Source: an uncultured Holophagales bacterium
GTDB taxonomy: Bacteria; Acidobacteriota; Thermoanaerobaculia; Multivoradales; UBA5704
Assembly (NCBI GenBank): GCA_963842525.1
Contig: CAWJGT010000009.1
Span: 992,001-1,056,000 of the forward strand
Length of the DNA stretch: 64,000 bases
Direction of reading: 5' to 3'
The position numbers were made by a program, and so were the translations under genes. A model generated the notes under the pieces. That model searched no databases, was not told the origin of the DNA, and saw nothing but the letters and a program-made list of their open reading frames with translations. Positions 4,938 through 44,700 of the stretch are shown piece after piece (within the stretch, counting starts at the first letter, position 1; each line of letters begins with the position of its first letter).

Positions 4938-7900
4938 GAGCGCCTTCTTCCAGCTCCATCTCTTCGGCGAGGAGGCGTTCCAGCTCCGCGGGGGAGAGGC
5001 CCTCGATCTCGTCCAGGATGTGGTCCACTTCGGCGAGCGCCTCCGCGCCCAGCCGCTGTGCCTCCACCCCGCGGGCGAGCCCGGCCACGGTCGGTGCCTC
5101 GAAGATCGCGCTCATCGAGAGGTCGACGTCGAACGCCTTGCGGATACGGGTGACGATCTGGATGGCCGTCAACGAGTTGCCCGCCAGCTCGAAGAAGTTG
5201 TCGTCGACGCCCACGGGCTCGATCCCCAGCAGCTCCTGCCAGATGCGGGCGATACCCGCCTCGACGTCGCTGTTCGGCGCGGTGTAGGGCGTCGAGAGCG
5301 CCGGCCGCGGATGGCCGCCCATGCCTGCGTCCGGCTGCTGGGCGAGCAGGTTGGCGGTCAGCGAGTTGTGGTGGGCGATGACGGTCACGAGGTCGCCGGT
5401 CGAGACGATGACCCGCGGCGCACCGGTGGCGAGAGCCCGCGCGAAAGCCTCCAGGGCCTCGCTTTCGTCGATGCCGAAGAGCTCCAGGGACCGCTTGAGC
5501 TCGGCCTGCATGCCGGCCGGGCCGCCGCCGAGCTGCTCCTGCCATTCCTCCCAACGGAACGAGCCCCAATCGATCGCCACGACCGGCAGGCCGCCCGTTG
5601 CCCGCTGTCCGGCGGCGAAGGCGTCGAGGAAGTTGTTGGCGGCGCAGAAGTCCACCTGCCCGAGGCCGCCGGTCACCGCGATGGTCGACGAGAACAGGGC
5701 GACGAAGTCCAGAGGGATGCCGTCCAATGCCGCGGCCAGCGCCCGGGTGCCCTCGACCTTGGGACGGAGGACCGGCGCCGAAGCCTCCGGGGTCTTGAGC
5801 TGGATCAGGCCCGCGCCCGGGACCATGTCGACGTGGAGCACGCCGTGAATGTCGCCGAACCGTTCGAGCGTCCGGGCGACAGCCTCCCGCGCGCCCTCCT
5901 CGTCCGCTGTGTCGGCTGGAACGAGCAGCACCTCGCCGCCTGTCGCCTCGATCTCACGTACGGTCCCCACGGCCCGCGCCACCGGGTCGTGAGAGCCGTT
6001 GCCGGCCGAAGCGGCGAGCAGGTCGTCCCAGCGTTCGCGGTCCGGGAAGGCGGGCGGCACGGCCAGGGCGATGCGAGCGCCGAGGTTGCGGACCAGGAGC
6101 CGCGCGAAGACCTGGCTCGTGAGATCGAGCCCGCCGGTGATGAGGTAGACGCCGCCCTGGCGGAGGGCCGCCGGCCGCGAGAACCGCTCGTCGAGCGGCA
6201 CGGCTTCCCACCCCTGCACCCAGCGGTGCCGGCCCCGGAAAGCCACGATCGGATCGGTGGCTCCGCCGGCCAGCTCGGCGATCAGGCGGTCGGCCAGCTC
6301 TCGTTCCAGCGTAGAAGACGAAGGCGGCGTCACCTCGAAGGAGCGGAAGGCGACCTGGGCCTGCTCCTGGGGCACCACCCGGCAGAGGCCGAGAGCCAGG
6401 GCCTTGTCGGGATCGATCGCCTCGTCGCCGGTCACGGGATGGAGCCGGTCCGCCACCGCGCCGATCTGCACCCCCCCGGCAGGAGCCTCCTCAGCCATCG
6501 CCTGGGTCAGATAGAGCAGGGACCAGAAGGAGCGCTCGCGGTCGACAGAACTTCCTGAGGTGATCCCCCAGAGGTGGAGCGCGCGGAGGCCCTCACCCCC
6601 CTGGCCCCCCTCTCCCATCCGCACTCCCGATCCCCCGGGAGAGGGGGGAAAAGACGCGGCAAGAGAGCTTTCGGGTTGGGGGCTCCCCTCTCCCGGCGGT
6701 TGGGAGTGCGGATGGGAGAGGGGTCGGGGGTGAGGGCTCCGCAGCAACGCATCGTAGTCCTTGCGCTCGCCGGGGCGCAGCGCAATCGTCCCATCCTCAC
6801 GGACCTCGAAACGCTCGCCAGGGATTACGGCGAGGGCCGTCGCTCCCCGCTCCCGCAGCCGCTCGACGATCCGCCGGCCCAGGCCGTCCTCATCCAGGAA
6901 GACCAGCCAGGACGAGCCCGCGATGTCGGCCGGCGGCTCGATCCGTTCCTCCTGCCGCCAGGAAGGGAGATAGAACCATTTTTCGAGCGGCTCCTTAGTC
7001 AACCCGCCCGTCGGCGCCGTGCCGAGCGGGTCGGCCAGAGGAGCGCCTGGAGCCGCCTGGTGCGATGTGCCGGGCTCGATCCAATAGCGCTGCCGCTCGA
7101 AGGGATAGGTAGGGAGCGTCACGCGCCGCCGGCGCTCGGTCGAGGAGGAGAACGCCTGCCAGTCCACGGCTGCACCGGCATTCCACAGCCGGCCGAGAGC
7201 GTGGAGCACGCGCGAGAGGTCCGAGACCTCCTCGGCCGACTCTCGCGGCCGGCGCAGCGACGGCACCGCGACCCGGGCCGTTCGGTCCCCCGGCATCTGC
7301 CCGGCGAGCGTCGTCAGCGCCTGCCCGGGCCCGACCTCCAGCAGCACCCGGTCGGGATCGGAGAGCAGCTCGGCGAGGCCGTCGCCGAAGCGGACCGTCT
7401 GCCGGATGTGCCGCACCCAGTAGGCCGGATCGGTCGCCTCCTCGGGCCGGATCCATGTCCCGGTCACGTTCGAGAGATACGGGATCTGCGGCGGCCGGAG
7501 CGCGACCCGGCCAACCCGTCCGGTGAAGGGTCCCAGGATCGGGTCCATCATCGCGGAGTGGAAGGCGTGCGACGTGTGGAGACGGGTGCACTCGACCCCC
7601 TCCGCATCGAGCCGCACGCGTAGCGCCTCGACCGCCGTTTCAGGGCCGGATACCACGCAGAATTCCGGGCCGTTGACTGCGGCAAGCGCGAGCCCTTCGC
7701 CGACCTCCGCCAGCTTCGCCGCCACCTCGGCTTCGGGCTGCGGAACCGCCAGCATCGCGCCGCCTGGCAGGCCCTGGATCAGCCGGCCGCGCGCCGCCAC
7801 CAGGGCAAGGGCATCCTCCAGCGAGAAGACCCCGGCCAGGCAGGCAGCCACGTATTCGCCGACGCTGTGGCCGAGCATCGCCGCCGGCCGCACCCCCCAG

Positions 7901-9805
7901 GACATCCAGAGCCGGGCGAGCGCGTATTCGACGACGAAGAGCGCCGGCTGGGTCAGCTCCGTCCGTTCCAGCCGCTGTGCCGCCGACTCCCGGTCCGCAG
8001 AGGGATAGAGCACCTCCCGCAGGTCGAGGCCGAGATGCGGCCGAAGGATCTCCGCGCAGCGGTCGACCTCAGCGCGGAAGACCGCCTCGCCCCGGTAGAG
8101 CTCCAGCGCCATGTCCGGATGCTGCGATCCCTGGCCCGGGAAGAGAAAGACGACCGGCCGCTCGTGGTCGCCTGCCGCCGCCGTCGCCGTCCGCGCCGGA
8201 TCGAGCGAGCGCAGAGCGGCCACGACCTCGGCGGCATCGCGGCCGACCACGATCTGCCGGTGCGGAAATGAGCGCCGTCCCGTCTGCAGGGTCCAGGCAA
8301 TATCCGCGAGAGTGCTTTCCCCCCTCTCCCGGGGGGTTGGGAGTGAGGATGGGAGAGGGGGGCTAGGGGGGTGAGGGTCCAAAAACGCCGCCAGATTCGC
8401 CGTCATCGCCTCCAGCGCCGCCGAAGTCTTCGCGGACAGTGGGAGCACCTGCCACGGCCGCGAGGCTCCCAACGGTGCGGAGGGCGCGGGAGCCTCCTCC
8501 AGCACCACATGCGCATTGCTGCCGCCGACCCCGAACGAGCTCACACCGGCCCGCCGCGGCCCACCGCCTTCCGGCCACTCGCGGAGCCTGGTGTTGACGA
8601 AGAACGGGCTTACCGCGAAATCGATCTCCGGATTGGGCTTTTCGAAGCCGAGGCTCGGAGGGATCAGCCCGTTCTCCAGGGAGAGCACCGCTTTGATCAA
8701 CCCGGCGACGCCGGCCGCGGCGTCCAGATGGCCGATGTTGGTCTTGACCGACCCCAGGGCGCAGAACCCCCGGCGCGCTGCTCCCCGGGAGCGGAAGGCG
8801 CGGGTCAGCGCGGCCACCTCGATCGGATCGCCCAGGCGGGTGCCCGTGCCGTGGGCCTCCACATAGCCGATCGTCTCGGGCTCCACCCCGGCGACCCCCA
8901 GGGCTTCGGCGATCACCTCGGCCTGGCTGTCCAGGCTGGGTGCGGTATAACCGACCTTGCCGGAGCCGTCGTTGTTGGTGGCCGAGCCGCGGATCACCGC
9001 GCGGATGCGGTCGCCGTCCCGCAGAGCGTCGGCGAGCCGCTTCAGGGCCACGATCCCCACGCCGTCGCCGAGCACCGTGCCGCGCGCCTCGGCGTCGAAA
9101 GCACGGCAGTGGCCGTCCGGCGAGTAGATGCTCCCCTCCTGGTAGAAATAGCCGACCTTCTGCGGCAGATTGACCCCGACCCCGCCGGCCAGGGCCATGT
9201 CGCACTCGCCGTCGAGCAGCCCCTGGCACGCCACATGGACGGCCACCAGAGACGTCGAGCAGGCGGTCTGCACCGCGAAGCTCGGCCCCCGCAGGTTGAG
9301 GCGGTAGGAAACCTGGGTGGTGAGGAAGTCCTTGTCGACGCTGATCCGCCCCTGGATGCCGCCGACCGACATCATCAGGTCGTGGTTGGACAGCAGGTTG
9401 TAGAGCAGATACGAGCTCAGGTTGGCGCCGCCGTAAACGCCAATCCGGCCGGCGAAGCGCTCCGGGTCGCAACCCGCGCCCTCCAGGGCCTCCCAGGCGC
9501 ACTCCAGGAACAGCCGGTGCTGCGGGTCCATGAGCGCCGCCTCGCGCGGCGTCAGGCCGAAGAAGGATGCGTCGAACAGCTCGATCCTCTCCAGGTACGG
9601 CTTGGCGCGCACATACGCGGGGTCTCGCCATACCGTCTCTGGGACGCCGGAGGCTGCGAGCTCCTCGTCGCTGAAGAAGGTGATGGACTCGACGCCGTCG
9701 CGCAGGTTCTCCCAGAACCGCTCGAGGCTGGGAGCGCCGGGGAAGCGGCCCGCCATGCCGACGATGGCGATCGCGTTGGGATAAAGGTCGTTCGAACTCG
9801 CTCAT
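4927..9805 (-). CDS. Type I PKS module KS-AT(malonyl)-KR(inactive)-ACP; +1 frameshift near 9795
   Basis: TACSTS, HGTGT, NIGH; AT GHSVG and HAFH; KR GQVDFCAAN (Tyr replaced by Phe); ACP AGNSL. True start ATG 9805 (GGGAG RBS) is one base out of frame with DLYPNAIAIVGMAGRFPG. Confidence 0.92.
6590..6736. repeat. Family A palindromic element (full, 147 bp), in-frame in the PKS KR structural region
   Basis: CCCTCACCCC..CCTCTCCCATCCGCACTCCC...GGGAGTGCGGATGGGAGAGGGG..GGGGTGAGGG; translated SPHPRPLSHPHSQPPGEG...GVRMGEGGQGGEG. Confidence 0.9.
8319..8377. repeat. Family A palindromic element (half), in-frame in the KS-AT linker
   Basis: CCCCCCTCTCCCGG..GGGAGTGAGGATGGGAGAGGGGGGCTAGGGGGGTGAGGG; translated PHPPSPPLPSSLPTPRERGE. 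Confidence 0.88.
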
Positions 9806-10462: not shown

Positions 10463-10480
10463 GAGGTGGGCGGCAGAGGA

Positions 10481-14209: not shown

Positions 14210-14212
14210 GGC

Positions 14213-24288: not shown

Positions 24289-24368
24289 GGTGTTCCTCGT
24301 CTGGTTTCTTCCGAGAAGCGCACGATGATACCGCCCCGGCAACCGGCACGTTCGGCGGACCACTGGGA

Positions 24369-24756: not shown

Positions 24757-24799
24757 GTGTGGAGGTAACGCCCCCGGGGTGGGCGGCGAGCGCGGCGCC

Positions 24800-27900: not shown

Positions 27901-30900
27901 TGTGCTGCCGGCGATAATGGCCTCGACGTCGGGCGTGCGCGCTACCTGCTCCTCGACGAGGCGGTGGATCGTCGCCGCCTGCGTCTGTGTGGCGGCGGTG
28001 TCGTTCCATTCCAGGAGCCGCCGATGCCGCTCGGCCTCGGTCTCCAGGGGAAGATCCGCGACCGATTGCTCGGGAGTGGCGAGAATCCCCGCGATCAACG
28101 TCCGGAGCTGAAGCGCCCACCGCTGGACCGTCGGCGGGTCGAACAGGTCGGTGTTGTATTCGAAGCGCCCGCCGATCTCCTCCGTTCCCTCGACGAGGTC
28201 GAGCGTCAGGTCGTAGCGCGCCGCGCCGCTTCCCACCTCCAGCGGACGCAGGCTCAGGCCCGGAAGGTCCAGGCTGCTGCGCGGGGTGTTCTGGAGGGAG
28301 AACATCACCTGGAACAGGGGCGGCCGGCTGAGGTCGCGCTCGGGCTTCAGCTCCTCGACCAGCCGTTCGAAGGGCAGCTCCTGGTGGAAGAGCGCGCCCA
28401 GGGTGACCTCGCGGACGCGGCGCAGGGCTTCGGCGAAACTCGGCCGCCCGGACAGATCTGTGCGTAGCACCAGCATGTTGGTGAAGAGCCCGATCAGCGG
28501 CTCGGCTTCGGCCGATCCGAGGCCGGCCACGGGGGAGCCGGCGGTCACGTCCTCGCGGCCGGTGAGACGGTGGAGAAGGATCTGGAAGGCCGCGAGGAGG
28601 GTCATGAAGAGCGTGGCCCCGGTGCGCTGGGCGAGCGCCCGCAGGCCTTCCGTCTCGTCGCGGCCGAGCGCGAAGGGGACCGAAGCGCCGCGCCAGGTCT
28701 GGACCGGCGGCCGAGGGCGGTCCGCCGGCAGGTCCAAAGGCGCGAGGTCGCCCGCGAGCTGGCGGCGCCAGTAGTCGAGCTGGGCTTCGAGGATGTCGCC
28801 CTGGAGCCAGCGGCGCTGCCAGGCGGAGAAATCGGCGTACTGGATCGGCAGATCCGGCAAGGGGGACGGCCGGCCTGCGGCGATGGCGGGGTAGAGAGCG
28901 CCAAGCTCGCGAAGCAGGACCCCCATCGACCAGCCGTCGGCGACGATGTGATGGAAGGTGAGGAGGAAGACGGCGCCCCCCCGGCTCTGCACGACCAGCA
29001 GGGCCCTCCAGAGCGGACCGCCCGCCAGGTCGAACGGCCGGACAGACTCGATCGCTGCGAGGCGCCGCGATTCGGCTTCCCGCAGCTCCTCCGGGAGAAT
29101 GGAGAGATCGATTCGTGGAAGGGGCCGCTTCGACGGCGGATGGACCTCCTGGGTGGCTCGGCCGTCCACCGCCGGGAAGGTGGTGCGCAGCACCTCATGC
29201 CGGCGCTCGATCTCGCCGAGGGTGGCTTCCAGGACTGCGATGTTCAGGGTGCCGGTAAGCTGGACCGCGAGCGGTACGTTGTAGGCGGCGGTGCCGGGAT
29301 CGATCCGGTCGAGGAACCAGAGGCGCTGCTGGGCGAACGAGAGGAGGCGCTCCTCGCCGGGGGACACGGGCCGCAGCGGGGGAGGCGAGCCGGCGCCGGC
29401 CTCAGCGGCCTCGATGGCCTCCAGGATGCCCGCGAGCCCGGCCGGCGTAGGGCTCTCGAAGAGCTGCCGCAGCGGCAGAGGCACGGCGAATTTCTCGCGC
29501 AGGCGGGCGGCCAGGCGGCTGGCGAGGAGCGAGTGGCCGCCGAGCGCGAAGAAATCGTCATGGGCTCCCACCTGCTCGACGCCGAGGAGGTCGGCGAAGA
29601 GGCTGGCCACCGTCTCCTCGGCCGGCGTCCGCGGAGACACATACCCATGCCGTTCCATGGCCTCGCTGGGCTCCAGGCGGGCCAGCGCGCGGCGGTCCAC
29701 CTTGCCGTTCGGGGTGAGAGGCATCCGTTCTAGGAGAAGCCAGGCCGAAGGCACCATGGGCTCGGGGAGCCGTTCCTTCAAATGAGCGCGCAGGATCCCC
29801 GGGGTGGCGTCCGTGCCCTTCGGCACCACACAGGCCACCAGCCGCCGGTCGCCCGGTGAGACCTCGCGGGCCAGGACGGCGGCTTCGCGCACCGCGGGGT
29901 GGCTGGCGAGCGCCGCTTCGATCTCTCCCAGCTCGATCCGCACGCCGCGGACCTTCACCTGCTCGTCGAGCCCGGCCGAGGAAGTCGATCGCGCCGTCCG
30001 GCCGCCAGCGGGCGAGGTCGCCGGTCGCATAGAGCCGGCCTCCCGCGTCCTCCGGTCCGGCGAAAGGATCGGGGACGAAGCTCTCGGCCGTGAGGTCCGG
30101 CCGGCCGCGGTAGCCGCGTGCCAGCCCGATGCCGCCGACATGGAGCTTCTCCGGGGACGCCGATCGGGACCGGGTGCAGGGAGCGGTCCAGGAGCCGGAC
30201 CTGGAGGTTGGAGATCGGGCGGCCGATCGGCGGGTTGATCGCTCCAGTGGGAACGGGGCCGGCGGTGGTGACCACGGTGCTCTCGGTGGGGCCGTAGTGG
30301 TTGACCAGGTGGATGGGAAGGTCGGGGCCGCGGTGGAGGCGGTCGCCTCCGGTGAGGAGAACCTCACCCCCTGTCCCCCTCTCCCATCGCCCCCCCTGCC
30401 ACCGGGAGAGGGGGAACGCGGGCGATGCCATGAGGGCTTCGGCGAGCGGGGTGGGAATGAAGGCGTGGGTGATGCGCTTGCGGACCAGGAGATCGGCCAG
30501 GGCCTCGGGATCGAGAGAGACCTCGGTGGGGACGAGATGGACCTCGGCTCCGGCGGCGAGATAGGGCCAGATTTCCCAGACCGAGGCGTCGAAGCCCAGA
30601 CCGGCGAGCTGCGTGGCGCGATCGCCCGGCCTTACCTGGTAGGTCTGGAGGTGCCAGGTGATTAAATTGGCGAGGCCGGCGTGGGTGATCTCGACGCCTT
30701 TGGGCGTCCCGGTCGATCCGGAGGTGTAGATCACGTAGGCCAGGGAGCGGGGATCGAGATTGGTCTCTGATACCTGGCCTTCGAGCCCGTCCTCCAGGTC
30801 CGTCAGAACCGTGGCTGCGTCCGCATCCTCCAGAATGACCGCCGCCCGCTCATCCGGGGTGCCGGGATCGAGAGGCAGATACGCCGCTCCGGCCAGGAGC

Positions 30901-32609
30901 ACGCCGAGCAGGCTGCAGACCATCTCCGGCGACCGCTCCATGCGGATGGCGACGACCGACTCGGGGCCGATCCCTGTACCGCGCAGGTGCTGCGCCAGGG
31001 CCGAGGCCCGCTGGTACAGCTCGGCATAGGTGAGCGAGCGGCCATCCATCGCCACCGCAGTGGCCCCGGGGGTCCGGGCCGCCCAGACCGCGACACGCTG
31101 GTGGACGAGAAGCGTCCCAGGCTCGCGAATCGTGTCGTTCCACTCCACCCGGACCTGCTGCTCTTCCGCCTCGCTCTGCAGAGCCAGGTCCGAGAGGCGT
31201 CGATCGGCGCTGGCGTCCGCAAGCAGAGTCTCGAGATAGCCGAGCATCCGTTGCACCGTCGCCCGTTCGAACAGGCCGGCGCTGCCATCGAAGGAAAGGA
31301 AGAGCCCATCGGCGGTCTCGGCGGCCGTGAGGGTGAGGTCATACATGGCGCCCACATCGCCGAACGGGACCTCTTCCAGGGGGAGCGCCGGGCCTTGTGA
31401 TGAGGGGCCGGGGACGTTCTGGAACGCGAGCATCACCTGGAACAGCGGGGTCCGGGAGAGGTCCCTCTCCGGATGCAGCTCCTCGACCAGGCGCTCGAAG
31501 GGGACGTCCTGGTGCTCGAAAGCCCCGACCGCCGCCTCCCGCACGCGGCCGAGGAGCTCGCCGAACACGGGGTCGCCCGCCAGATCGGCGCGGACCGGCA
31601 GGCTGTTGACGAAGAACCCGATCAGCCGCTCGGTCTCTACCCGCTTGCGACCGGCCACCGGGGTGCCGACCGCGAATCCGGTCTGGCCGGTGATCCGGTG
31701 AAGCAGGGCCTGGAACGCGGCCATGAGAACCATGAAGAGCGTGGCGTCCGCCGCGTACCCCAGGGTCTTCAACCGTTCGAGGATCTCCGGCGAGACCGTG
31801 CCGGAGGCCCGGACCCCGCGATGATCCGGGACGGGCGGGCGCGGCAGATCGGTGGCCAGCTCCAGGACCGGCGGAGCCTCCCCCAGCCGTTGGCGCCACC
31901 AGGAGAGCTGAGACGCGAGGGTCTGTCCCTCCAGGGCCTGCCGTTGCCACTGCGCGAAATCAGCGTACTGGACCGGCAGCTCTGGAAGCGGCGAGGGGAG
32001 CCCCTGTGAGAAGGCACCGTAGAGGGCCGCGACCTCCTCTACCAGAAGGTTCATGGACCAGGCGTCCGACACGATGTGATGCATGGTGACGAGGAGCACC
32101 TGATCGTCCAGCCCCAGGCGGAGCAGCCGTACCCGGAGCAGCGGCCCCTGGGCCAGATCGAACGGAGCCCACGCCTCCTCGGCCGCGAGCCGCCGTACCT
32201 CATCCTCGGTCTCGGCCAGGCCCGAGAGGTCCACCAAGAGGATCGGCATCGGGCAGGGAGGCGCGATCCTCTGGGCCGCCTCCTGACCTTCCATCGCGAA
32301 CGTGGTCCGAAGCGTTTCGTGCCGCCGTGCAATGTCCGAGAACACCCGTGCCAGCACCGCCGGATCGAGGGCCGTCCGGATCCGCACCGCGATCGGCAGG
32401 TTCCAGGCCGTATTGCCGGGAGCGAGCTGATCCAGGAACCACAGCCGCTCCTGGGCGAACGAGAGGGGATAGGACGATGCATCCCGCGGCACCGGCACGA
32501 TCGGCGTCCGCGAAAGATCGATCCCTCCCTTGCGGGCTAGCAGGGCGAGAAGCTCGCGCTTTTTCGGATCGAGAGCGGCGAGGGTCTGGGCGAGATGAGA
32601 TTCAGACAC
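24892..32609 (-). CDS. NRPS C-A(Leu-like)-T-C-A(Gly, interrupted by a luciferase-like monooxygenase)-T; two +1 frameshifts (~30147, ~29972)
   Basis: HHIVSD and HHIVADG C domains; A codes read by eye as DAWFLGHVVK and DILQLGMVWK; T motifs GGHSL and GGTSL; LLM at ~26130-27160. Removing one base at each break restores PGELHVGG and FLGRLDEQVK. Confidence 0.9.
27494..27618. repeat. Family B palindromic element, in-frame just before the A3 motif of the Gly A domain
   Basis: GCCCCGGGTTTACACCCGGGGC..CGCCCTCCGGGCTC...GAGCCCGGAGGGCG..GCCCAGGGTGTGAACCCTGGGC; translated [16 protein letters not shown]...[10 protein letters not shown]. Confidence 0.8.
30362..30414. repeat. Family A palindromic element (half), in-frame within an A domain
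   Basis: CCTCACCCCCTGTCCCCCTCTCCCATC..CCGGGAGAGGGGG; translated [18 protein letters not shown] immediately before LLTGGD. Confidence 0.85.
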
Positions 32610-32734: not shown

Positions 32735-35700
32735 CTAGCTTCCCCGCAGCTCCGCCAGCATCCTTTCAACCTCCTCGGGCGAGGTCTCCCGCAGCTCCGC
32801 CAGCATCCTTTCAACCTCCTCGGGCGAGGCCTCCCGCAGCTCCTCCGCCAGCATCCTTTCAACCTCCTCGGGCGAGGCCTCCCGCAGCTGTGCGGCGAGG
32901 CGGGCGAGCTCCTCGGTCTCGGACTCGTCTTCGGTCCGCGCTCGGTCCGCGGCTTCGGCCAGGGCCTGGACCGTCACGGCTTCGAAGAAGGTCGGGAGCG
33001 AGAGGCGCACGCCCAGGACGTCGTGGACGCGGACCATGATCTTCGTGGCGAGGATGGAGTCGCCTCGCAGCTCATAAAAGTTGTCGTCCAGCCCGATCTG
33101 CTCGACGGGCACGCCGAGGACCTCGGACCAGATGCGCGCGATCGCTTGCTCGGTGCCGGTCTGCGGCGGCCGGTGCTCGCGCGAACATAGCGCCAGAGCC
33201 TCCTCGGGCGCGGGCAGGGCGCGGCGGTCGACCTTTCCATTGGGTCCCAGCGGCAGCGCCGCGAGCGGCACGAAGAGCGGAGGCACCATGTAGTCCGGTA
33301 ATCTCTCGCGCAGAAAGGCGCGGAGGTTTTCCGGGTCCTGGTCCGGCACGACGTAGGCGACCAGGTGCTTGCTGCCGAGCCTCTCTCCGAGGGCCACGAC
33401 CACGGCGGCGTGGACGGACGGGTGCTCGGCGAGAGCGGCTTCGATCTCTCCCAGCTCGATCCGGTAGCCCTGGACCTTGACCTGGAAGTCTTCGCGGCCC
33501 TGGAACTCGATCGTACCGTCCGGGAAATACCTTCCAAGATCGCCGGTGCGGTACAGGCGCTCGCCGGTCTCGGGATGGCTCACGAAGCTCGCGGCCGTCT
33601 TGTCCGGATCGCGCCAATAGCCCTGCGCCAAGCCGATGCCGCCGATCCAGAGCTGGCCCGGGACCCCATCCGGCCGCGGCTCGAAACGGCTGTCCAAAAC
33701 GTGGAAGGTCTGGTTCGCCATGGGCCGGCCGTAGGGGATGCTCTTCCAGGCGGGATCGACCTCGCCGATCGGATACCAGATGGACCAGATCGACGCCTCT
33801 GTGGCGCCGCCCAGGCTGACCACCCGGGTCTGCGGGCTCAAGGCGCGGACGCGGCCGGGGAGGTCGAGAGGGATCCAGTCGCCGGAGAGGAGCGCCAGCC
33901 GCAGCGGGCTTTCCAGGCTGCCTTCGGCACTGCTGGTCTCCAGGAAATCGATCAGCATCTGGAGCAGGGCCGGCACCGAATTCCAGACCGTCACACGCTC
34001 GCTCCAGATCCGCTCCGCCCAGTGCGCCGGATCGCGTTGCGCATCGGCGCGCGGGATGACGACGGCGCCGCCGGCTGCCAGGGTGCCGAAGATGTCGTAG
34101 ACCGACAGGTCGAACGAGAGGGAGGACAGGGCGAGCACCCGGTCGTCAGGACCGATCCCATAGGCCCGGTTCACATCGAGCACCGTGTTGACCGCGCCTC
34201 GGTGATCGATCATGACCCCCTTGGGTTGGCCCGTCGAGCCGGAGGTGAAGATCACATAGGCAAGATCGGTGACCTGCTGGACCGGGTCGAGCGGCGCGCC
34301 GTCCGCGGACAGGCCGGTCCCCTCGTGGTCCAGGACCACGCGGTGGACCTCGGGCGGCCAGTCGAGGGCGGCATCCACCGCCGGGGTGGTGACGGCGATC
34401 CGCACCTCGCCGCGTTCCAGGAGTTGGTGGAGGCGCTCGCGGGGGAGGCCGGGCTCCAGTGGCAGGTATGCGGCGCCCGCGGCGAGGACCCCCAGCACCG
34501 AGACGACCTGTTCCCAGCCCTTTTCCTGGACCACCGCGACCAGGGTGTTCGGTTGCGCTCCGAGCGCGCGGAGGTGCCGGCCCAGGCGGCTCGACAGGCG
34601 GTGCAGCTCGCCGTAGGTGAGGGTCCGGCCCGGCGCCAGCACCGCCGGCCGGCCGGGCTCCGCGGCGGCCTGCCTGGCGAACAGGATGTGGAGATGCTCG
34701 CCGGAGACGGGCGCAGCGGTGGCGTTGACCTGTGCTCGGACGGCGAGTTGCTCCGCAGGTAGGAGGTGGAGGCGCTCGGCGGTCCAGGTCGCCTCGTCCT
34801 CGACGAGGCGGTGGAGCAGGGCGCCGTAGGCGTCCCAGACAGCGTCAATCAGCCCCGCGGGGAAGAGCTCGACGACGACGTCCCAGTTGAAGGTCAGCGC
34901 GCCATCCGTCTCGGCCACCTGATGGTCGAGCCAGACCTGCGGTGTCTGGCTGACCCCGTAGACCCACTCCATCCGCGGGCCGACGGCCTCGACGTCCTCC
35001 GCCGGCGCGGTGCCCTGCGTGACGTTGAGGGTGCTGGTGAAGACGACCGGCTGGAGAACGTGATGCCCGTGGACGCGCGCCAGCTCGCGTAGGACGCGCA
35101 CGCCGGACACGGCGCGGTGCTCCAGGTCCTGCCAGAGCCGTTCCTGGACGGACCGCGCGCGTGTTTCGAACCCACCGGCGCCCGACACATCCACGCCTAG
35201 CAGGGTCAAAGAGGTGAAATCGCCGAGGATCTCGTCGGCCTGCGGGTGGACCGGCAGGCGGTTGAACAGGGTCAGCGTGATGGTGAAGCGCGGGCTCTTG
35301 CTCCAGGCGGCGAGGACCTCGGAGAAAGCGGCCAGCAGCAGGCCGGACGGCGTCAGCCCGGCGCGGGCGCCACGCTCCTTGAGGCGCTGCCATGAGGCGG
35401 CCTCGAGCCCGCCGCTCCAACGCCGGAAGCGGGGCTTGTCCAGTGACGCCGGGGCCTTGGCAAGTGGCAGCTCGGGCGCGGGCGGCAGATCCTGCACGCG
35501 CTGCCGCCAATAGTCGAGGGAACGCTGCCAGTCCTCGGTCTCCTGCAGGGCCGCCTCGGCGAGCACATAGTCGCGGAACGACAGTGTGAGCGGCGGCAAG
35601 ACCGCGTCGGGCTCGCGGTAGAGGCGGGCGAGCTCGCGGGACAGGATCTCGAAGCTCCACCCGTCGCCGATCAGGACGTCCAGGCTAATGTAGAGCCGGG

Positions 35701-38700
35701 TCCGTTGCGCGTCGACCCGGGCGGCCCGGATGTCGAAGAGCGGCCAGCGGTCGGGCCGCAGGACCTGGTGCGACATGCCGGTCCGGATCTCCTGGAGCGC
35801 GGTCTCCTTCTTCACGGGATCGAGGCCGGCGAGGTCGACGGCGGCGATCTCATAGGGCGGAACCTCTGGGAGGATGCGCTGCCGGCCGTCGGGCAGGAAG
35901 ACCGCGCGCAGCATCTCGTGCCGGTCGATGGCCCGCCGCAATGCCTGGGTCAGCCGCCCGAGGTCGAGGCCGTCCGCGTCGAATTCGAAATAGATGTGGG
36001 AGCCGACGCCGCCCAGCTCGAAGGCCTCGCTACGGCCGAGCCAGTAGGCCTGCTGGATGTCGGTCAGCGGGAAGGGCTCGAAGCGGTGCTTGGGGTCCGG
36101 CACGACGACCGGCAGGGCCGCGCCTGTCGAGACGCCGAGGTCTCCCTCGCTGCGCCGCCGGGTGACGAGGGCTGCCAGCTCCGCGATCGTCGGATTTTCG
36201 AACAGCGCCGCGATGGGCAGCGCGACGCCGAAGCTCTCGCGCACCCGGCTCATGAGCGAGGTGGCGAGCAGCGAATGGCCACCCATCTCGAAGAAGCTGT
36301 CGTGCCGGCCCACGGCCTCGATGCCCAGGAGTGCCTGCCACGTCCCGGCGATGGAGCGTTCCAGGTCCCCTTCGGGAGGCACGTAGGCGTTCCGCAGGTT
36401 GGGCCGCGCATGGCCGGCGAACGGACCCCGGGTCGCCCCGGCTTCGAGCGCCGGGCTTGTGCTGACGACCGGGGCGGCGCCCCGTCCCGCGGGCCGTCGC
36501 ATCCACCGCTCCTCGCTGCGCCACGCGATTGCCGGTTCCTCACCGTGCAGGGCCTCCGCAAGCAGCCGGCCTGCCATGGCCTCGGCCCAGGCCTCGCGAT
36601 CTGACGAAGGAGGCCGGAGATCAATCGCGCGGCAGAGCAGGCCCTCCTTGGAGGCTGCCTCGCAGAGACCGGGAAGGGATGCCTTGCCGGGGTCAGTCTC
36701 TTCGTCGTCCCGTACGGCGAAGAGACCGTCTGCCACCACCAGCAGGCGCGTAGGCGATCCGTTGCGTGAGCTCAACTCGCGCAGGACGGGGAGGACGCTG
36801 CGGAAGCCCAGCTCTTCGCTGCGTTCCAGCCGGTCGAAGAGGGAGGCGTGTTCGCCGGTCGCCAGGCCCCAGAGGTGGAGGATGCGGGAGGGCGGCGTGC
36901 CGAGGGCGTCGAGCAGGACGGCGCAGTCCTCGCGGGAGCCTGGTCGGATGGTCCAGGTGCGGTCACCGGTGCGGGCGAAGGCTTCGCCGGGGATGACCAG
37001 GACGGCCTGGTGTTCAAGGTGGTGGGCGATGCGGGTCGCGAGGCCAAGGGTGTCGGCGAAGAGGACCCATCCTCCGTCCCATGCCGTCGCCCCTTCAGGG
37101 CTTGAGCTGAAAAATGGGGTGCTACCTGGGGTTGAAACCCCAGGCTTTATGCCGTCGCCCCTTTGGGGCTCACCCACCTCGCCCCCTCTATGTTCCCCCT
37201 CTCCCGGGTGGTGGGGGGGCGATGGGAGAGGGGGCCAGGGGGTGAGGACCCACGGCCGCGGCTCGACTCGGTCGACCCGCTCGATCCAATACCGGTTCCG
37301 TTCGAACGCATACGCCGGCAGCGGCACCCGTTTCCGCTGCTCCCCGGCGTGCACCCCCTTCCAATCGATCTCGACGCCGGCAATCCACAGCTTCGCGAGC
37401 GACTCCAGCACGAAGGCGCGCTCGTCGCCGGTCTCGTGGACCGATGGCAGACTGCGCACCGCAGCACGATCCCCTTCGGCAAGCCCCTCCAGGGAAGCCA
37501 GATGCTGCAACGCCAGCGAGGTCAGGCTGCCGCCGGGGCCAACTTCGAGGAGGAGGCGATCGGGCTCGCGCCACAGCTCGGTGAGGCCTGCGGCGAAGCG
37601 GACCGGGCCGCAGAGATGGCGCGACCAGTACTCGGGATCGGTGGCGTCCGCAGCGGTCAGCCAGCCGCCGGTGACGTTGGAAAGGCATGGGATGCGCGGT
37701 GGCCGTCTCTCGATCTGGCGGACAAGCTCCGTCAGCCGCGGAGCCACTGGGAGCATCATCCGCGAGTGGAAGGCGTGCGAGGTCTCGACAGGTCGGCAGG
37801 CGATTCCGTGCGCCGCGAGCTGGGATTCCAGATCGGCTATGGCTTCGGGTGGACCGGCGACGACGCAGAGCGCCGGGCCGTTGACCGCAGCCAGGGAGAG
37901 AGCCTCGCCGAGCAGCGGCTCGACCTCGGCCTCGGGGAGAGCCACGGCCAGCATCGAGCCGGCCGGCAGCTCGTCGATCCAGCGTGCCCGTTCGGCCACC
38001 AGGAGCAGCGCGTCATCGAGCGAGAGGACTCCGGAGACGCAGGCGGCCACGTACTCGCCCAGGCTGTAGCCGAGCACCGCCTGCGGCCGGACGCCCCAGG
38101 ACATCCAGAGCTTCGCCAGGGCGTACTCCAATGCGAATACCGCCGGCTGGGCGATCGCGGTCCTGGACAGCTCGCCGGTGGTGCTCTCACCTCGGCCGAG
38201 CATGCGCCGCAGGTCGGGGCCACTACCGGTTTTTGTGCCCTCGTCCAGAAGCACCTCTCGAAGATCCCGGCCGAGGTGCGGGAGGAGGATTTCAGCGCAG
38301 CGGTCCAGCTCCTCACGGAAGACCGGCTCGTCGCGATAGAGGCCCGTTCCCATTCCCGGATACTGGTCTCCCAGGCCGGAGAAGACGAAGGTGGCAGGCC
38401 GGTCCTCCGGCCCGCGGGCGCCGGTGAGGAGCCGCCGGGGATCGCGTTCCGCCAGAGCTTGTGTCGCATCTCTGACCGAACGGCAGACCAGGGCGCGACG
38501 GTGCTCCCAGCCGCGGCGCCCGGCCTGGAGGGTCCAGGCGATATTCCCGATGTTCCCCAGGCTCTCGTCCGGATGGGTTTCGAGATGCCGGGCGAGCCGG
38601 TCGGTAGCGCGCTCCAGGGCGGCTTCGGTGCGCGCGGAGAGCACCAGGAGCTGCCAGGGCCGGGCGTCCGTCGTTTCGGACTCGGGCGCCTCCTCCAGGA

Positions 38701-41700
38701 CCACATGGACGTTGGTCCCGCCCAGGCCGAAGGAGCTGACTCCGGCACGGCGCGGCGAGCCATTGCGTGGCCAGGAGGTGAGCGCGGCATTGACCCGGAA
38801 CGGCCCCGCGGCGAAGTCGATCTGCGGGTTCGGGGTCTCGAAGTGCAGGCTCGGCGGGATCTCCCGGTGCTCCAGCGCCAGGACGGTTTTGATCAGGCCG
38901 GTGATCCCCGCCGCCGCATCGAGGTGCCCGACGTTGCTTTTGACACTGCCCAGCGCGCAGGTGCCCGGGCCGGCTCCCGGACCGAAGGCCTGGTGGAGCG
39001 CCGCGACCTCGATGGGGTCTCCCAACGGTGTGGCGCTGCCATGGGCCTCGACGTACTGGATCGTTGCGGGATCGACGCCGGCCGCGGCCTGCGCCTCGGC
39101 GATGGCGCGCGCCTGCCCTTCGATGCTGGGCGCCGTATAGCCCACCTTGCCCGCGCCGTCGTTGTTGATGGCGGAGCCGCGGATCACCGCATGGATGAAG
39201 TCGCCGTCGGCGAGCGCCGCCGCGAGGGGGCGCAGGACCACGACGCCGACGCCATCGCCGCCCACCGTGCCCTGTGCGCGGGCGTCGAACGAGCGGCAGT
39301 GGCCGTCCGGCGATTCGATGCCGGTCTCCATATAGAGGTAGCCGGCCTTCTGGGGGAAGTGGACCGATACGCCGCCGGCCAGGGCCATCTCGCACTCGCC
39401 GGCGAGCAGGCTGCGGCAGGCCTCGTGGACCGCCACCAGCGACGTCGAGCAGGCGGTTTGCACGGTCATTGCCGGACCGCGCAGGTCGAGCTTGTAGGCG
39501 GCCCGCGTCGCCAGAAAATCCTTGTCATTACCCACCATCAGCCCCAGGCCGCGCGCCGACGCCGGCAGGTCGGGGTTGGTGAAAAGGTTTCCAATGCCGT
39601 AGGTGCTGAGGCCTGTGCCGGCCCAGACGCCGGCGCGGAGGCCCTCGCGGCCCGGGTCGTGCCCGGCGTTCTCCAGCGCCTCCAGCGCACATTCCAGGAA
39701 CAGCCGCTGCTGGGGATCGGTCAGCTCGGCCTCGCGCGGGCTGTAGTCGAAGAGCCCGGCGTCGAACAGGTCGGCCCCGTCGAGGATGCCGCGCGCCGGT
39801 ACGTAGGCGGGGTCACGGAACAGCTCCTCGGGGACACCGGCCGCCCGCATCTCTTCCGCGGTGAAAAAAGAGATCGATTCGACCCCTGCGCGCAGGTTCT
39901 GCCAGAGCTCGTCGACGTTTGCGGCGCCCGGGAAGCGGCCTGCCATGCCGATGATGGCGATGTCCCGGGAAGCTTGGCGCGGAGCCGTCGTCACGACAGG
40001 CGTCGGCCGCTCGCTCGTCTCGCCGCGCAGCCGGCGGGCGAGGGAGGACACGTCCGGATGGCGGAAGAGGTCGACGAGGGAGAGGTCGGACCCCAGCTCG
40101 CGGCGCAAGCGGTCGTGGACTCGCATCAACAGGAGCGAGTGCCCGCCCAGGTCGAAGAAGTTGTCCCGCAGCCCTACCCGTTCGACGCCGAGGACGTCAC
40201 GCCAGATCGCAGCGATGGCGCGCTCGGTCTGGGTGCGTGGAGTTTCGTAGACAGCCGGGACGGCCTGGGTCCGCATCCTGTCCCGGGCCTCGGTCCAGCC
40301 GGCCGGGAGCACCTGCCGGCGCTCCTCCTCGGAGAGGACGTCGACCTCGCCCAGGGACCGCTCCGGGTCTGCCGCGAACGCCGCCAGGATATGGTCGAGC
40401 CAGCCCAGCAGGCGGCGTGCTGTAACCGCCTCGAAGCGGTGGTCGTACGTGAGCTGGAGCCGCAGTTGCGCACCGGGGAGGACCGACAAGGTCAGCGGAT
40501 AGCCGGTGCGCTCGACGATGCGGACCCCGGTTACCTCCAGGTCTTCGCTTGTCGCAGCGGCCAGGGAGGCGACCGGATAGCTCTCGAAGGCAAGAAGGGT
40601 CTGGAAGAGAGGCTCACGGGCGGACAGGCCGCTCCAGCGCTGGATTTCGGGAAGCGGCGTCTGCTCGTGCTGGCGCATCCCGGCCTGCCGGGATTGGAGG
40701 TCGGAGAGCCAGCCGGCGATCCGCACGTTGGGATCAACCTCGATCCGCACGGGCAGCGTATTGACGAACAGGCCGAGGGCGGATTCGACGCCGGGCAGCT
40801 CGGGCGGGCGGCCGGCCACCACGGCGCCGAAGACCACCTCGCGCTCGCCGGTCCAGCGGGCGAGGAGGAATCCCCAGGCACCTTGCACCAACGTGTTGAG
40901 GGTCAGTCCGAGCCCGCGGGCCAGCGTCTCCAGGCGGGTGGTGTCGTCCTCGGCCAGGATCACCTCCTCCTGCCCGAAGTCGGACGCCCGCTCGGGTGGC
41001 GGCAACGACCGGTCCCAGGGGAGCCTTGCCGAGGCCGTGAGATCGGCCAGCTCGTGCCGCCACCAACGCTCGGCCTCTTCGTGATCCCGGCTCGCCAGCC
41101 AGGCCACGAAGTCGCGGTAGGGAAGGGCGGGCGGGGGCAGCGGATCGGCCGCCTCGCCCCGCCGTTCGGCCTCGTACAGGGCGAAGACCTCGGCGAAGAC
41201 CCGAGGGAGGCTCCACCCGTCCAGCAGCAGGTGGTGGAAGCTCCAGACGAAGCGGTGCTCGTCCTCGCCGGTCCGCAGCAGCGCGCCGCGCAGCAGCGGC
41301 GCCCGGGAGACGTCGAAGCCGCGCCGGCGGTCCTCCGCGGCGAAGGCCTCCAGCCGTCCGTCCGGGTCCGCGTCCCCCCGCCAGTCCTCTTCGGTCCAGG
41401 GGATCTCGACGCCGCGGCGGACGACCTGGAGCGGCTCGTCGAGATCCTGCCAGACGAAGGCGGTGCGCAGGATGCCGTGCCGGTCCACCAGCCGCTGCCA
41501 GGCGAGGCGGAAGGCGTCGGCATCCAGGTCCCCGTGCAGGGTGCAGGAGAGCTGCTCGAAGTAGATCTCACCCGCCGGGCTGTAGACGGCATGGAAGAGC
41601 AACCCCTCCTGGAGCGGCGCCAGGGGATAGAGGTCCTCGACCGTCCGGTCGTTGTCCAGGAGACGGTCCAGGCCGGACTGGTCCAGCCGGGCCAGTGGGA

Positions 41701-44700
41701 AGTCGGATGGCGTCCAGCCGCCTGCTTCGGAGGACAGGCAGTGCGCGACGAGAGCCTCGAGCTCCTCGGCGAAGCCGTGGGCCAGCGTCTCGACCGTCTC
41801 CCGTTCGTGGAGGTTCTCGCTGTAGGCAAAATGGGCGCTCAGCCGGCCGTCGCGCACCTCGGCAACAACCTCCAGGAGGTGGCGCCGCCGCGCTCGCGGG
41901 CTGCGGGGCGGCCCCGGCGACTCGGCCGCGGGAGCAAGCCGGCCCGTCTCTTCCAGAACCAGGTCGAGGCGGCCCAGGTAGTTGAAGACCACCTCCGACG
42001 GCGGCAGGGCGGCGAGCGGCTCCGCGTCCTCGGGCTCGCCCAGGTAGCGTAGGAGCCCGAAGCCGAGCCCACGCGACGGCACCGCCCGGAGCTGCTCCTT
42101 GACTCTTCGGAGGGCCTGGCGGGGTGGGCCCTCACCCCCGGCCCCTCTCCCATCCGCACTCCCAACCACCGGGAGAGGGGAGCCCCCACCCAGGAGTATC
42201 CGAGGAGGTGCTTCTTCCCCCCTCTCCCGGTGGGTTGGGAGTGCGGATGGGAGAGGGGGGCCAGGGGGGTGAGGGTCCGCAAGATCGAGGACGATCGGAT
42301 AGAGGACCGTAAACCACCCGACAGTGCGCGAGAGGTCCGCCCCCGGAAGGATCAGCTCCTCTTCGCGGCCGTGCCCTTCGAGGTCCAGCCGCAGTCGTGG
42401 TGCGCCGGTCCAGCGCGCCAGGGTCTGGGCCAGGGCGGTCAGCAGCAGGTCTTCGGTCCGCGCGTGGTAAGCCCCGGGGGCCTCCTGGAGGAGCGCGCGG
42501 GTGACCTCGGGGGCAAGGGAGACATCGACCGTCGCCAGGGACGACTCGACGTTCTCGCCGCCCGGCCGGTCGACCGGAATTGGCGGTCCCGGGGGAAGCG
42601 CCAGCCACCAGCCCAGCTCATGGCGGAACCGGGCCGCGCCGGCAGCCTGCGCGATCCGCTCGGCCCACCGTTTCCAGGAGATGGTCTTCGGCGGGAGCTG
42701 GACCGGCTGGCCCGCCGCGGCCTGCTCCCAGGCGGCCTCCAAGTCTTCCAGGAGGATGCGCCACGAGACGCCGTCCACCACCAGGTGATGGATGGCGAGA
42801 AGCAGCCGCGCGCCCGACGGGCCGAGGCCGAAGAGCGCGAACCGCAGGAGAGGGCCGTCCTGGAGGTCGAGGCTCGCCTGGACCTGCGCCGCGGCTGATT
42901 CCAGGGCCGGCCGGCGGAGGGGCTTGGGGAGCGCCGAGAGGTCGACGTGGATGACTGGCGGCTCGGCCGAGGGCTCGCCAAAGGCTGCCCGCATCCCATC
43001 CCCTCCGAACCGGAGACGTAGCGCGTCATGGTGCTCCACCAGCGCGCCGACCGCCCGCCGCAGCGCTGACGCCTCTACATCGCCTCGGATGTCCAGAAGG
43101 ACGGCCTGGTTGAAGTGCCAGGGCTCTTCGGGGCGGCTGTCCAGGAACCAGCGTTGGACCGGGGTGAGCGGCGCGCTGCCGGTGACCCGTCCGGCCTCTT
43201 CCGGCAGGGTGGCCTCCGCACCGAGCTTCCCGGGCTACGGCGGCCAGCTCCGCCACGGTCTGCCGTTCGAAGACCTGCCGCGGGGTGACGGCGAGCCCCT
43301 CGCGGCGGGCGCGGGCAACCATCTGGATGCTCAGGATCGAATCGCCGCCGAGCCGGAAGAAGTTGTCACGGACCCCGACGCGGGGCACCCCCAGGACCTC
43401 GGCCCAGACTGCCGCCAAAGCCTCCTCCCTGGGTGTGCGCGGCGCCGCGTGTCCTTCGCCCCTCTCGACACCGGCGCGGGCATCCGGCGCCGGCAGGGCG
43501 CGCCGGTCGATCTTGCCGCTCGGCGTGAGCGGCAGGGCCGACAGGATCACCCAGAGTGCGGGCACCATGTACGCCGGCAGGCGCTCCGCCAGCCAGGAAC
43601 GCAGGTCCGCGATCGGGTGCTCGATCTCTGTCTCCAGCACCACATAGGCCGCGAGCCGGTCGTCGCGCGGCACCACGGCCGCCTCGCGCACGTGCGGATG
43701 GCCGGCCAGGACCGCCTCGATCTCCCCCGGCTCGATGCGAAACCCTCTTACCTTGACCTGGCGATCGATCCGTCCCAGCAGGTCGATCTCGCCCCAGGGC
43801 CGCCAGCGGACGAGGTCGCCGGTCCTGTAGAGACGGCCGCCCGGGATCTCTGCGAATGGATCAGGTGAGAACCGCTCTGCCGTCAGGTCCGGACGCCCGA
43901 GATACCCGCGGGCAAGCCCGTCGCCGGCCAGGCACAGCTCGCCGCGAGCGCCCAGCGGCACCGGCCGCAGCTCGCGGTCCAGCAGCCAGGCGCGGGTCCC
44001 TGCGACCGGCCGGCCGATCGAGGGCTCGCCGGCCGCGCCGGGAAGGAGCCGGCTGGCGGTGGAGTAGACCGTGTCCTCGGTCGGCCCGTAGAGGTTCCAG
44101 ACCCGCTCGACCGTCGGGATCTTGTGGAGGGCTTCAGCCAGCCGGAGCGGGAACGGCTCGCCGGCCAGATTGACCGTCCGCACCGACGGCGGGAGGCCCT
44201 CGATCCGCAGCAGCTCGGCCATGGCCGAGGGCACCGTGTTGACCAGCTCCACCTCGCCGGCTGCAGGGATCTCGGGAAAGACCAGGGCGTTCTCGGCCAG
44301 GATGACCGTCCCGCCGCACGCCAGGGGCGCGAAGATCTCGAACACCGAGATGTCGAAGCTGATCGAGGTGGACGCCAGGACGCCGCGGGCGAGCTCGCCG
44401 GCGAATTGTTCGATGGCCCAGCCGATGAGTGCCGCGGCGCTGCGGTGGGTCACCCCCACGGCCTTGGGAAGGCCGGTGGAGCCCGAGGTGTAGATGAGGT
44501 AGGCGAGGTGGTCGGGAGAAGGCGGGACCTCACCCCCTGGCCCCCTCTCCCATCTCCCACCCACCCATCCCCGGGAGAGGGGGGACGTTGTTGACGCCTC
44601 CGTGGCGAGCTCGCCGAACGGCTCCGGATGCGTTCCCCCTCTCCCGGCGGGGGGTGGAAGGAAGATGGGAGAGGGGGCCAGGGGGTGAGGTCCCGGCATC

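Follow-up and report, generated by a model that had tools for sequence, protein, structure and literature searches.

The element described here is a multi-copy palindromic repeat in the genome of an uncultured Holophagales bacterium (NCBI assembly GCA_963842525.1, here G000; 9.95 Mb, 34 contigs, 67.5% GC). Six copies lie in one 64,000-nucleotide (nt) stretch of contig CAWJGT010000009.1 (G000:C9:992001-1056000), which is the window throughout this text. All six are read in frame through the open reading frames (ORFs) of nonribosomal peptide synthetase (NRPS) and polyketide synthase (PKS) genes, together termed megasynthases. The family is most probably a selfish repeat akin to repetitive extragenic palindromic (REP) sequences and MITEs (miniature transposable elements with inverted repeats), and its copies in coding regions would be survivors filtered by selection. 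In-frame behaviour is general in this genome, with megasynthases as the richest hosts.

Insertion is the proposed origin of the copies. The repeat would spread, or would have spread, in the manner of REP/REPIN (REP doublets forming hairpins) or MITE-type selfish DNA, leaving no target duplication, and most copies would settle between genes. Coding copies would be purged unless they alter the length by a net multiple of three, are read in a stop-free frame, and place their peptide in a tolerant loop or linker. The tolerated peptide would be rich in Gly, Pro, Ser, Arg, and Glu. Megasynthases are long and, under this mechanism, full of tolerant places, so they would hold about half of the intragenic copies. 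These places would include the a2-a3 loop and the a5-a6 and a8-a9 regions of adenylation (A) domains, together with the linkers between ketosynthase and acyltransferase (KS-AT), peptidyl carrier protein and condensation (PCP-C), and acyltransferase and acyl carrier protein (AT-ACP) domains. The inserts would be translated as disordered excursions that, in variable loops, often replace native sequence.

Element Structure and Census

The half-unit of the element is about 56-60 nt long. In it, a CCCCTCTCCC / GGGAGAGGGG hairpin (stem 11-13 bp, loop 18-22 nt) precedes a conserved ..GGGGGTGAGG terminus. A full copy contains two inverted halves with a variable spacer between them, spans 120-300 bp in total, and folds into a single long hairpin with an RNA dG of -117 to -155 kcal/mol. 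Arms from different window copies are 91-95% complementary, which together with the folding bears out an initial annotation that described a hairpin half-unit doubled in inverted orientation. Conservation continues for 4 nt past GTGAGG and then drops to background level. No Rfam family matches the element at gathering score, the threshold of Acido-Lenti-1 included, and its sub-threshold matches to microRNA precursors are generic hairpin matches.

A half-unit profile was made from this genome's own copies and run against the contigs with nhmmer (E < 0.001). It recovers 788 half-units, which form 261 inverted pairs and 266 solos for a total of 527 loci; the exact 13-mer core occurs 609 times. 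Close half-unit neighbours have their CCTCAC/GTGAGG ends outward in 260 cases, the opposite arrangement in 1, and a tandem arrangement in 12. Full coding copies fall in no single length class modulo 3, so frame-keeping is no inherent property of it. At one a2-a3 site, a solo (C18:22775) in one NRPS gene corresponds to a pair (C19:508092) in a paralogue with flanks 84-89% identical, so pairs and solos interconvert in place. Identity between the copies at C18:39545 and C19:531708 points to duplication at the contig level.

Within the window, the 14-mer core (up to 2 mismatches) occurs 12 times against 1.98 expected, and none of 100 shuffles reaches 12. The profile finds three pairs and three solo halves there and nothing besides, at the six places first reported. 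By the ORF list and Pfam matches, the centre of the window holds an NRPS/PKS cluster on the minus strand, and the six copies, E1 to E6, are read through four of its long ORFs.

E1 (6587..6739) is a full element with a 145-nt core from CCTCAC to GTGAGG plus 4 conserved nt per side (profile pair 6591-6735). It encodes, in frame, residues 1007-1057 of a PKS module with the architecture KS-AT-KR-ACP (4927..9756, minus strand, 1609 aa as listed; Pfam), and lies between the Pfam AT (536-836) and ketoreductase (KR; 1202-1400) matches. E2 (8317..8376) is a solo half-unit in the KS-AT linker of the same ORF, where it encodes residues 460-481 in frame. The true start of this ORF may lie further upstream, given a KS match that begins at residue 1.

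E3 (30361..30417) is a solo half-unit encoding residues 731-751, in frame, of an NRPS C-A ORF (29955..32609, minus strand, 884 aa; Pfam). Within the A domain it falls between regions a4 and a5, immediately ahead of an ...LTGGD... stretch. E4 (37191..37248) is a solo half-unit in the post-AT linker of a hybrid NRPS/PKS ORF of 3434 aa (32735..43039, minus strand; E/C, C, KS, AT, ..., A, PCP), at residues 1930-1951 and in frame, and it adjoins a copy of another repeat family (Acido-Lenti-1 match, 37125..37170). E5 (42126..42278; profile pair 42130-42274) is a full element in the same hybrid ORF, in frame at residues 255-305. It lies in the N-terminal epimerisation/condensation-type (E/C) domain, near position 305 of the Pfam Condensation profile. 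E6 (44523..44695; 165-nt core, profile pair 44527-44691) is a full element in frame at residues 625-682 of an NRPS C-A-PCP ORF (43026..46568, minus strand, 1180 aa), in the a2-a3 loop of the A domain.

The first report of these copies is thus refined at two points. It gave two copies a length of exactly 147 bp; the two are equal in length, but they measure 145 nt from CCTCAC to GTGAGG with 4 further conserved nt per side, and 147 is one convention among several. It also sited the copies in KR, A, and E domains and in linkers, which holds for A, E/C, and linkers; E1, however, is outside the catalytic KR match.

Genomic Distribution

Genes were called with our own simple codon-bias caller, which gives 6880 ORFs covering 80% of the genome. 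Megasynthase ORFs were set by similarity to the window's own domains and span 1.08 Mb (13.5% of coding DNA). Sorted by position relative to ORFs, the 527 loci comprise 279 intergenic ones, 120 at an ORF edge, and 128 inside an ORF. Random intervals fall inside an ORF far more often (13,784 of 20,000, 69%), and the intergenic or edge share of 399/527 compares with about 31% expected by random placement. The family is therefore mainly extragenic.

Megasynthase genes account for 60 of the 128 intragenic copies, and their coding DNA shows a roughly 4- to 12-fold enrichment over other coding DNA. Expressed as density, megasynthase coding DNA carries 58 copies per Mb, other coding DNA 14-19, and non-coding DNA 153-190. 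The initial annotation had proposed that the family colonises NRPS/PKS coding sequence and had called for a genome-wide enrichment check. The excess over other coding DNA agrees with that proposal, but the family is not specific to these genes: non-coding DNA is denser still, and at least 31 copies are in frame in ordinary genes. Regional targeting of the clusters was considered and rejected, as non-coding DNA less than 15 kb from megasynthase genes carries 153 copies per Mb versus 190 elsewhere. The bias thus belongs to the megasynthase genes themselves.

Coding signal is present on both sides of 31 of the other 68 intragenic copies. In the 20 ordinary hosts scanned against Pfam, copies are located at linkers, loops, and gene-gene junctions. 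They include a protein-kinase activation segment, a winged-helix/TPR boundary, the membrane/ATPase boundary of an ABC exporter, and sites inside AcrB and DUF5682. Junction copies fuse the HisF C-terminus to HisIE, two ABC ATPases, and a topoisomerase fragment to RecQ, each in one open frame (G000 C9:302219-303325, C34:82992-84968, and C25:156341-159259). From these arrangements, an open in-frame element may serve as a linker that fuses neighbouring genes.

Reading Frame

Frame preservation was tested without gene calls by blastx of 750-nt flanks against the window synthetases, with same-strand homology required no more than 200 nt away on each side. By this test 63 elements qualify as megasynthase-territory copies, and 464 lack homology on at least one side. 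The frame is kept and open in 58 of the 63; four show a phase change and one a stop. The five exceptions comprise a natural boundary between two NRPS genes, a copy whose associated shift is about 170 nt upstream, a rearranged remnant in which a C-domain fragment is joined to an A domain, and two copies with a frame change nearby. Megasynthase territory as a whole (1.27 Mb) contains 143 frame changes, natural gene boundaries included, and none is less than 150 nt from an element. None of the 399 loci outside ORFs has megasynthase ORFs on both flanks.

Intergenic pairs have on average 2.16 open frames out of 6 and megasynthase copies have 3.09. Multiplied by the one-in-three chance of the right phase, the open-frame count implies that about 1/8 of random insertions would keep an ORF. 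The observed in-frame ratio is thus a signature of purifying selection on working reading frames. Megasynthase copies use all six frames and both orientations, in keeping with the varied frames first noted in the window, and the peptides quoted there are found in the sequence: DPHPPGPPLPS in E5, LTPWPPLPS in E4, and GGRWERG.GGEV in E3 and E6. Gly and Pro each make up 20% of the element-coded residues, Ser 10%, Arg 9%, and Glu 8%.

These counts bear on two other accounts of the coding copies. The host clusters could be decaying pseudogenes in which elements pile up in dead DNA, and the assembly does carry frameshifts in megasynthase genes, two of them within one A domain of the window. However, dead DNA would gather frame-breakers at about 7 to 1, against at most 4 frame-changing and 58 open copies seen here. 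The gap around each element in the distribution of frame changes also speaks against decay, as do ORFs of 1180-3434 aa that stay open and retain intact domain matches flanking each copy, and pseudogene accumulation is very unlikely. The second account holds that the elements are untranslated through ribosome hopping or removal from RNA. Mobile GC-rich inserts are bypassed in yeast mitochondria, and the hairpins of the present element are very stable. Skipped elements would nevertheless give no reason for frame-keeping, so the in-frame proportion weighs against bypass, as do the additional open frames of coding copies relative to intergenic ones; this account is scarcely credible.

Positions in the Enzymes

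Element positions within the enzymes were set by our own reading of domain coordinates from 60 megasynthase fragments searched against Pfam. The A-domain motif names used for siting (A2, A3, etc.) are those of the NRPS literature. The commonest site is the a2-a3 loop of the A domain with 25 copies, one of which is a contig-level duplicate. Other A-domain sites are a4-a5 (1 copy, E3), a5-a7 (4 copies), a8-a9 (3 copies), and an embedded-monooxygenase junction (1 copy). Six copies, including E5, lie within C/E domains, one lies within an AT domain, and one is unassigned. Interdomain linkers hold the remaining 18, including E1 (AT-KR), E2 (KS-AT), and E4 (post-AT). At least 53 of the 60 copies are separate sites once host duplications are taken out. 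A motif search finds 204 A domains in the genome, and 21 carry a copy between A2 and A3, or 1 in 10.

The same structural sites accept foreign sequence in interrupted A domains, where whole methyltransferase domains are described at a2-a3, a6-a7, and a8-a9 (PMC8341866). Those inserts are folded and catalytic, at 260-390 aa, whereas the 25 a2-a3 and 3 a8-a9 copies counted here belong to a family that would encode low-complexity peptides of 18-57 aa derived from selfish DNA.

The E6-bearing A domain was modelled with AlphaFold2 from a 29-row alignment of A domains from this genome and its relatives. The model has a mean pLDDT of 87.7 and a pTM of 0.84. Residues 137-173, within the insert (121-178), have pLDDT below 50, and a short strand at 129-132 in the element-coded part is predicted with moderate confidence. 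In this one modelled copy the insert appears to fit the host fold. Pfam matches on both sides suggest that the other copies fit as well.

Other long a2-a3 loops in this genome contain different repeated peptides, such as …GISPGFQSRES…GLPFPGLKRA… and …GIKPGVSTPG…SPEGA…. The genes concerned are at G000 C9:1400977-1410417, C9:1316870-1326982, C14:102027-108845, and C9:942780-949391. Several repeat families would therefore share the same permissive loop.

Insertion and Replacement

The number of residues in the interval of each window copy was compared with that in the five best element-free paralogues. E1 contributes 49 element residues where paralogues have 9, E2 contributes 20 versus 6, E3 20 versus 7, E4 20 versus 18, E5 49 versus 4, and E6 56 versus 25. 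In conserved cores the element is, by these alignments, a net insertion. In variable loops, where the alignments are uncertain, it often appears to stand in for native sequence of similar length. The A2-to-A3 distance peaks at 65-69 residues in domains that lack the element and ranges over 49-85 with a solo and 70-138 with a pair.

The view that the element adds loops of 18-57 aa consequently holds in part. Element residues are absent from domain paralogues or same-genus homologues at E1, E2, E3, and E5, but many copies elsewhere replace native sequence of similar length. Epimerisation-domain homologues from four of five same-genus genomes align as two abutting pieces that skip E5; these are not syntenic orthologues.

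Candidate empty sites at the DNA level were examined in paralogues and set aside. C30:28959 and C30:22983 have element-free paralogues that are 85-86% identical, but the junction-adjacent sequence differs and exact boundaries are not fixable. The apparently empty C18 site, compared with C3:379988, retains the terminal 11 nt of the element and is a deletion derivative.

Mobility and Functional Retention

Several observations weigh against a simple selfish-repeat origin. No target-site duplication (TSD) of 2-9 nt is present in 252 clear-ended pairs at five boundary offsets, where the sole signal is the palindromic GGCC of the element ends. Half-units are absent from the 3 kb around all 15 Y1_Tnp loci of this genome. 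The genomes compared gave no orthologous empty site and no insertion event was caught, and mobility is suggested by copy number and dispersal. The apparent replacement of native sequence in several a2-a3 loops is not predicted by simple insertion. In two sister species, the closest C-A-PCP homologues (63% identical) have a variant of the element with a short loop in the matching a2-a3 position, so that site has been hit, or converted, more than once. The megasynthase excess may be above what tolerance alone gives: fewer than 20 copies are expected in 1.08 Mb from the non-coding density and about 12% ORF-preserving insertions, versus the 60 counted. Coding copies are as conserved and as self-complementary as intergenic ones, which would fit a retained function too. 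Finally, the gene calls come from a crude caller and the assembly carries frameshifts in megasynthase genes.

The last two biological points raise the possibility that megasynthase copies are kept for a function, either as homology for module recombination or as stable mRNA hairpins that pause ribosomes for co-translational folding. The hairpin shows no decay in coding copies (median 43.6 bits in coding and 43.5 in intergenic copies; -0.84 and -0.80 kcal/mol per nt), the megasynthase count exceeds the naive tolerance estimate, and 18 of 60 copies are at domain boundaries. The solo-and-pair site shared by the C18 and C19 paralogues is consistent with such a function. So is a solo at C6:82053 (within G000 C6:80714-84605), which sits exactly at a junction of two domains: a C-domain fragment that ends near residue 394 of the reference module and an A domain that begins just past a2-a3. 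Its surroundings are a scrambled run of NRPS fragments, and a deletion between two element copies would produce such a junction. Nonetheless, the commonest site is mid-domain rather than at a boundary, and the same elements are in frame in unrelated ordinary genes and, far more often, intergenic. That both orientations and all six frames are used speaks against a function specific to the peptide or the RNA. Functional retention is quite improbable on this balance, and survival of selfish copies under selection is the reading preferred here.

How the selfish repeat would move is a separate question. The initial annotation called it a mobile, non-autonomous repeat; the multi-copy palindromic family stands, and mobility itself is the conditional part, with no target duplication, transposase, or true orthologous empty site found in the searches made. 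A linked nuclease or transposase was sought in Y1_Tnp neighbourhoods, among ORFs between facing halves, and by co-occurrence across 31 genomes, and nothing convincing was found. In this genome, solo halves separated by 300-6000 nt face one another at 14 places. No listed ORF there was shown to be a transposase, and the only single-ORF candidate scanned against Pfam is an AdoHcy hydrolase.

A REPIN-type population moved by a REP-associated tyrosine transposase (RAYT), an IS200-like Y1 HUH enzyme, rather than a MITE derived from a DDE insertion sequence, is possible but doubtful. Hairpin units, inverted doublets, singlets about as common as doublets, and the lack of a TSD all fit this account. 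At least 8 full-length Y1_Tnp genes are present in the genome, and Y1_Tnp occurs in 11 of 13 relatives with at least 10 element matches versus 7 of 18 with fewer, although related genomes are not independent. Against it stand the Y1_Tnp neighbourhoods, as 9 loci checked contain no hairpin core within 1.2 kb and only stray 8-mers, and two element-rich genomes (G008 and G021) that have no Y1_Tnp match. Classical REPs carry a GTAG-type head, which is absent here, and half-units of 56-60 nt exceed them in length.

Relation to Known Repeat Families

Rickettsia palindromic elements (RPEs) provide the closest functional comparison, and our best reading, by analogy, is that the present family behaves like them in a new lineage and with a new host-gene bias. 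A 2024 MITE review (PMC10969869) describes RPEs as multi-copy palindromic repeats of about 100-150 bp, many of them in frame in genes, with the peptide at fold-compatible positions; the analogy first drawn from the window fits that description. Copies of the present element lie in genes with the frame kept (6/6 in the window, 58/63 in megasynthase territory, and 31 other ORFs), and for one modelled copy, E6, the position is predicted to be compatible with the host fold. The likeness is one of behaviour rather than of sequence comparison, in another phylum and with a very GC-rich repeat, and sequence homology to described RPE families is unlikely from composition. In contrast to RPEs, the present family is mostly extragenic, its intragenic copies concentrate in NRPS/PKS genes and often seem to replace loop sequence, and solos are as common as full copies.

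REP/REPIN populations share with the element their palindromic singlets, inverted doublets that fold as one hairpin, mostly extragenic location, and lack of a target duplication. Differences include units about twice the usual REP length and a substantial in-frame presence in genes. No RAYT flanked by units was found at the Y1_Tnp loci, so the element is not placed in the REPIN family.

Bacterial MITEs, such as those of Anabaena and Coxiella and the enterobacterial ERIC, are likewise small and non-coding, with terminal inverted repeats, high copy number, and occasional in-frame ORF fusions according to the same review (PMC10969869). The present element is small, has inverted termini and many copies, and carries no transposase gene. 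It differs in its lack of a TSD, for which reason it is not placed in the MITE family. No parent insertion sequence with matching ends was found between the facing halves of this genome. In a cyanobacterial NRPS/PKS cluster, MITE and insertion-sequence insertions are reported to inactivate genes and not to be read through (PMC4766695). A literature search on palindromic elements and MITEs in NRPS, PKS, and A domains, on acidobacterial clusters, and on Acido-Lenti-1, with supplements outside its reach, found no report of in-frame repeats enriched in NRPS/PKS genes, and the words "synthetase" and "polyketide" do not occur in the 2024 MITE review (PMC10969869).

Occurrence in Other Genomes

The full element matches in 17 of 31 genomes searched, this genome counted, and many of these have dozens of matches. 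It is present in all five other members of the genus and in 14 of 18 other members of the family. A 21-base core pattern finds at least 114 stretches in public genomes. Among the matches listed, metagenome-assembled genomes (MAGs) with the labels Thermoanaerobaculia, Holophagales, and Acidobacteriota contain the long-loop form. Together with the Acido-Lenti-1 matches, this distribution suggests that the window comes from an acidobacterium. A hairpin with a short loop, CCCCTCTCCC-loop-GGGAGAGGGG and then a GGGGTGAGG tail, occurs among the matches listed in records labelled as the cyanobacteria Nostoc and Gloeomargarita, several Bosea (Alphaproteobacteria), the planctomycete Kolteria, Chloroflexota, and others. 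No Rfam family covers this hairpin-plus-tail pattern. Of 131 pattern hits among the matches listed, 33 lie in ORFs that stay open for 80 codons or more in each direction, and 6 of these ORFs resemble NRPS/PKS, at least 5 of them in Thermoanaerobaculia or Holophagales records.

Two further searches were narrower in reach. A search with the E1 peptide against longer proteins gives 8 matches among 67 candidates, mostly this genome's own plus two kinase clusters, and is too limited to gauge spread. Among sequencing runs, no RNA run is listed for the locus, which does not count as evidence of silence, and the only runs listed are three soil-metagenome DNA runs of one study. Their contigs match only repeat copies and one 188-nt flank, with none bridging an element, and are uninformative on expression or empty sites.

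The cross-phylum core allows a bolder account, in which the hairpin-plus-GGGGTGAGG unit is an ancient mobile module dispersed over several phyla that has, in this acidobacterial lineage, become a motor of megasynthase evolution through recombination at permissive loops, with its peptide partly co-opted. Copies in a2-a3 loops, C-domain loops, and linkers would then be portable homology with which to delete, swap, or fuse domains or genes. The element peptide may already be co-opted as structure, as in the modelled strand at 129-132 of the E6-bearing A domain. The megasynthase excess, the undiminished coding hairpin, the solo at a deletion junction, and the core motif itself keep the bolder readings alive, but this account is unlikely.

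Implications for Megasynthase Engineering and Annotation

If selfish insertion filtered by selection is correct, the family amounts to a natural insertion-tolerance screen of NRPS/PKS enzymes, with about 60 sites in one genome, and more in relatives, bearing 18-57 extra residues. Such a screen would be useful in assembly-line engineering, as it marks places for tags, linkers, and split points. Two cautions for annotation arise as well. Rfam-type "sRNA" motifs such as Acido-Lenti-1 can be repeats within coding sequence, and synthetases annotated in MAGs of this kind can owe their low-complexity Pro/Gly stretches to repeats.

Other Features of the Window

A possible scrap of the element had been noted near 27471. 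It is instead a member of another palindromic family, an inverted repeat at 27492..27620 whose right arm (27574-27617) matches Rfam Acido-Lenti-1 (RF01687) above gathering score. ORF 24892-30141 reads through this repeat in frame, within an A-domain a2-a3 loop. The second Acido-Lenti-1 match (37125..37170, plus strand) is antisense to its host ORF, beside E4 in the post-AT linker. Acido-Lenti-1 and the focal element are different sequence families, but both are palindromic repeats in the same genes, in frame in an a2-a3 loop and in a linker. From these positions, the Acido-Lenti-1 "sRNA" motif appears to behave here as a repeat inside coding sequence.

ORF 24892-30141 (minus strand) continues the A domain of ORF 29955-32609, the host of E3, followed by PCP-C-A(monooxygenase)-PCP. 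That A domain contains two single-base frameshifts, at about 29965 and about 30144, some 180 nt apart. The proper reading passes from …VPIGVPGE in ORF 29955-32609 through …AIDFLGR in the third frame to LDEQVKVRG… in ORF 24892-30141. With both frameshifts inside one A domain, the two ORFs are one gene, and the break between them represents either assembly indels or real mutations.

The window also has two tandem repeats of other kinds. A 63-nt tandem repeat at 24294-24797 comprises six overlapping 189-nt copies, or about eight units, 75-100% identical to the reference copy, and one plus-strand frame gives a 21-residue GPVVAPAGPAGPLRATAVSVY-like repeat. At 32750-32889, at the 3' end of the 3434-aa hybrid ORF, a unit of 45-48 nt is repeated three times in tandem (98-100% identical) and may encode a repeated C-terminal helix or docking segment. 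Adjoining the NRPS/PKS cluster, a 1074-aa ORF at 16967-20191 matches DUF4135 and LANC_like, as in the architecture of class II lanthipeptide synthetases.

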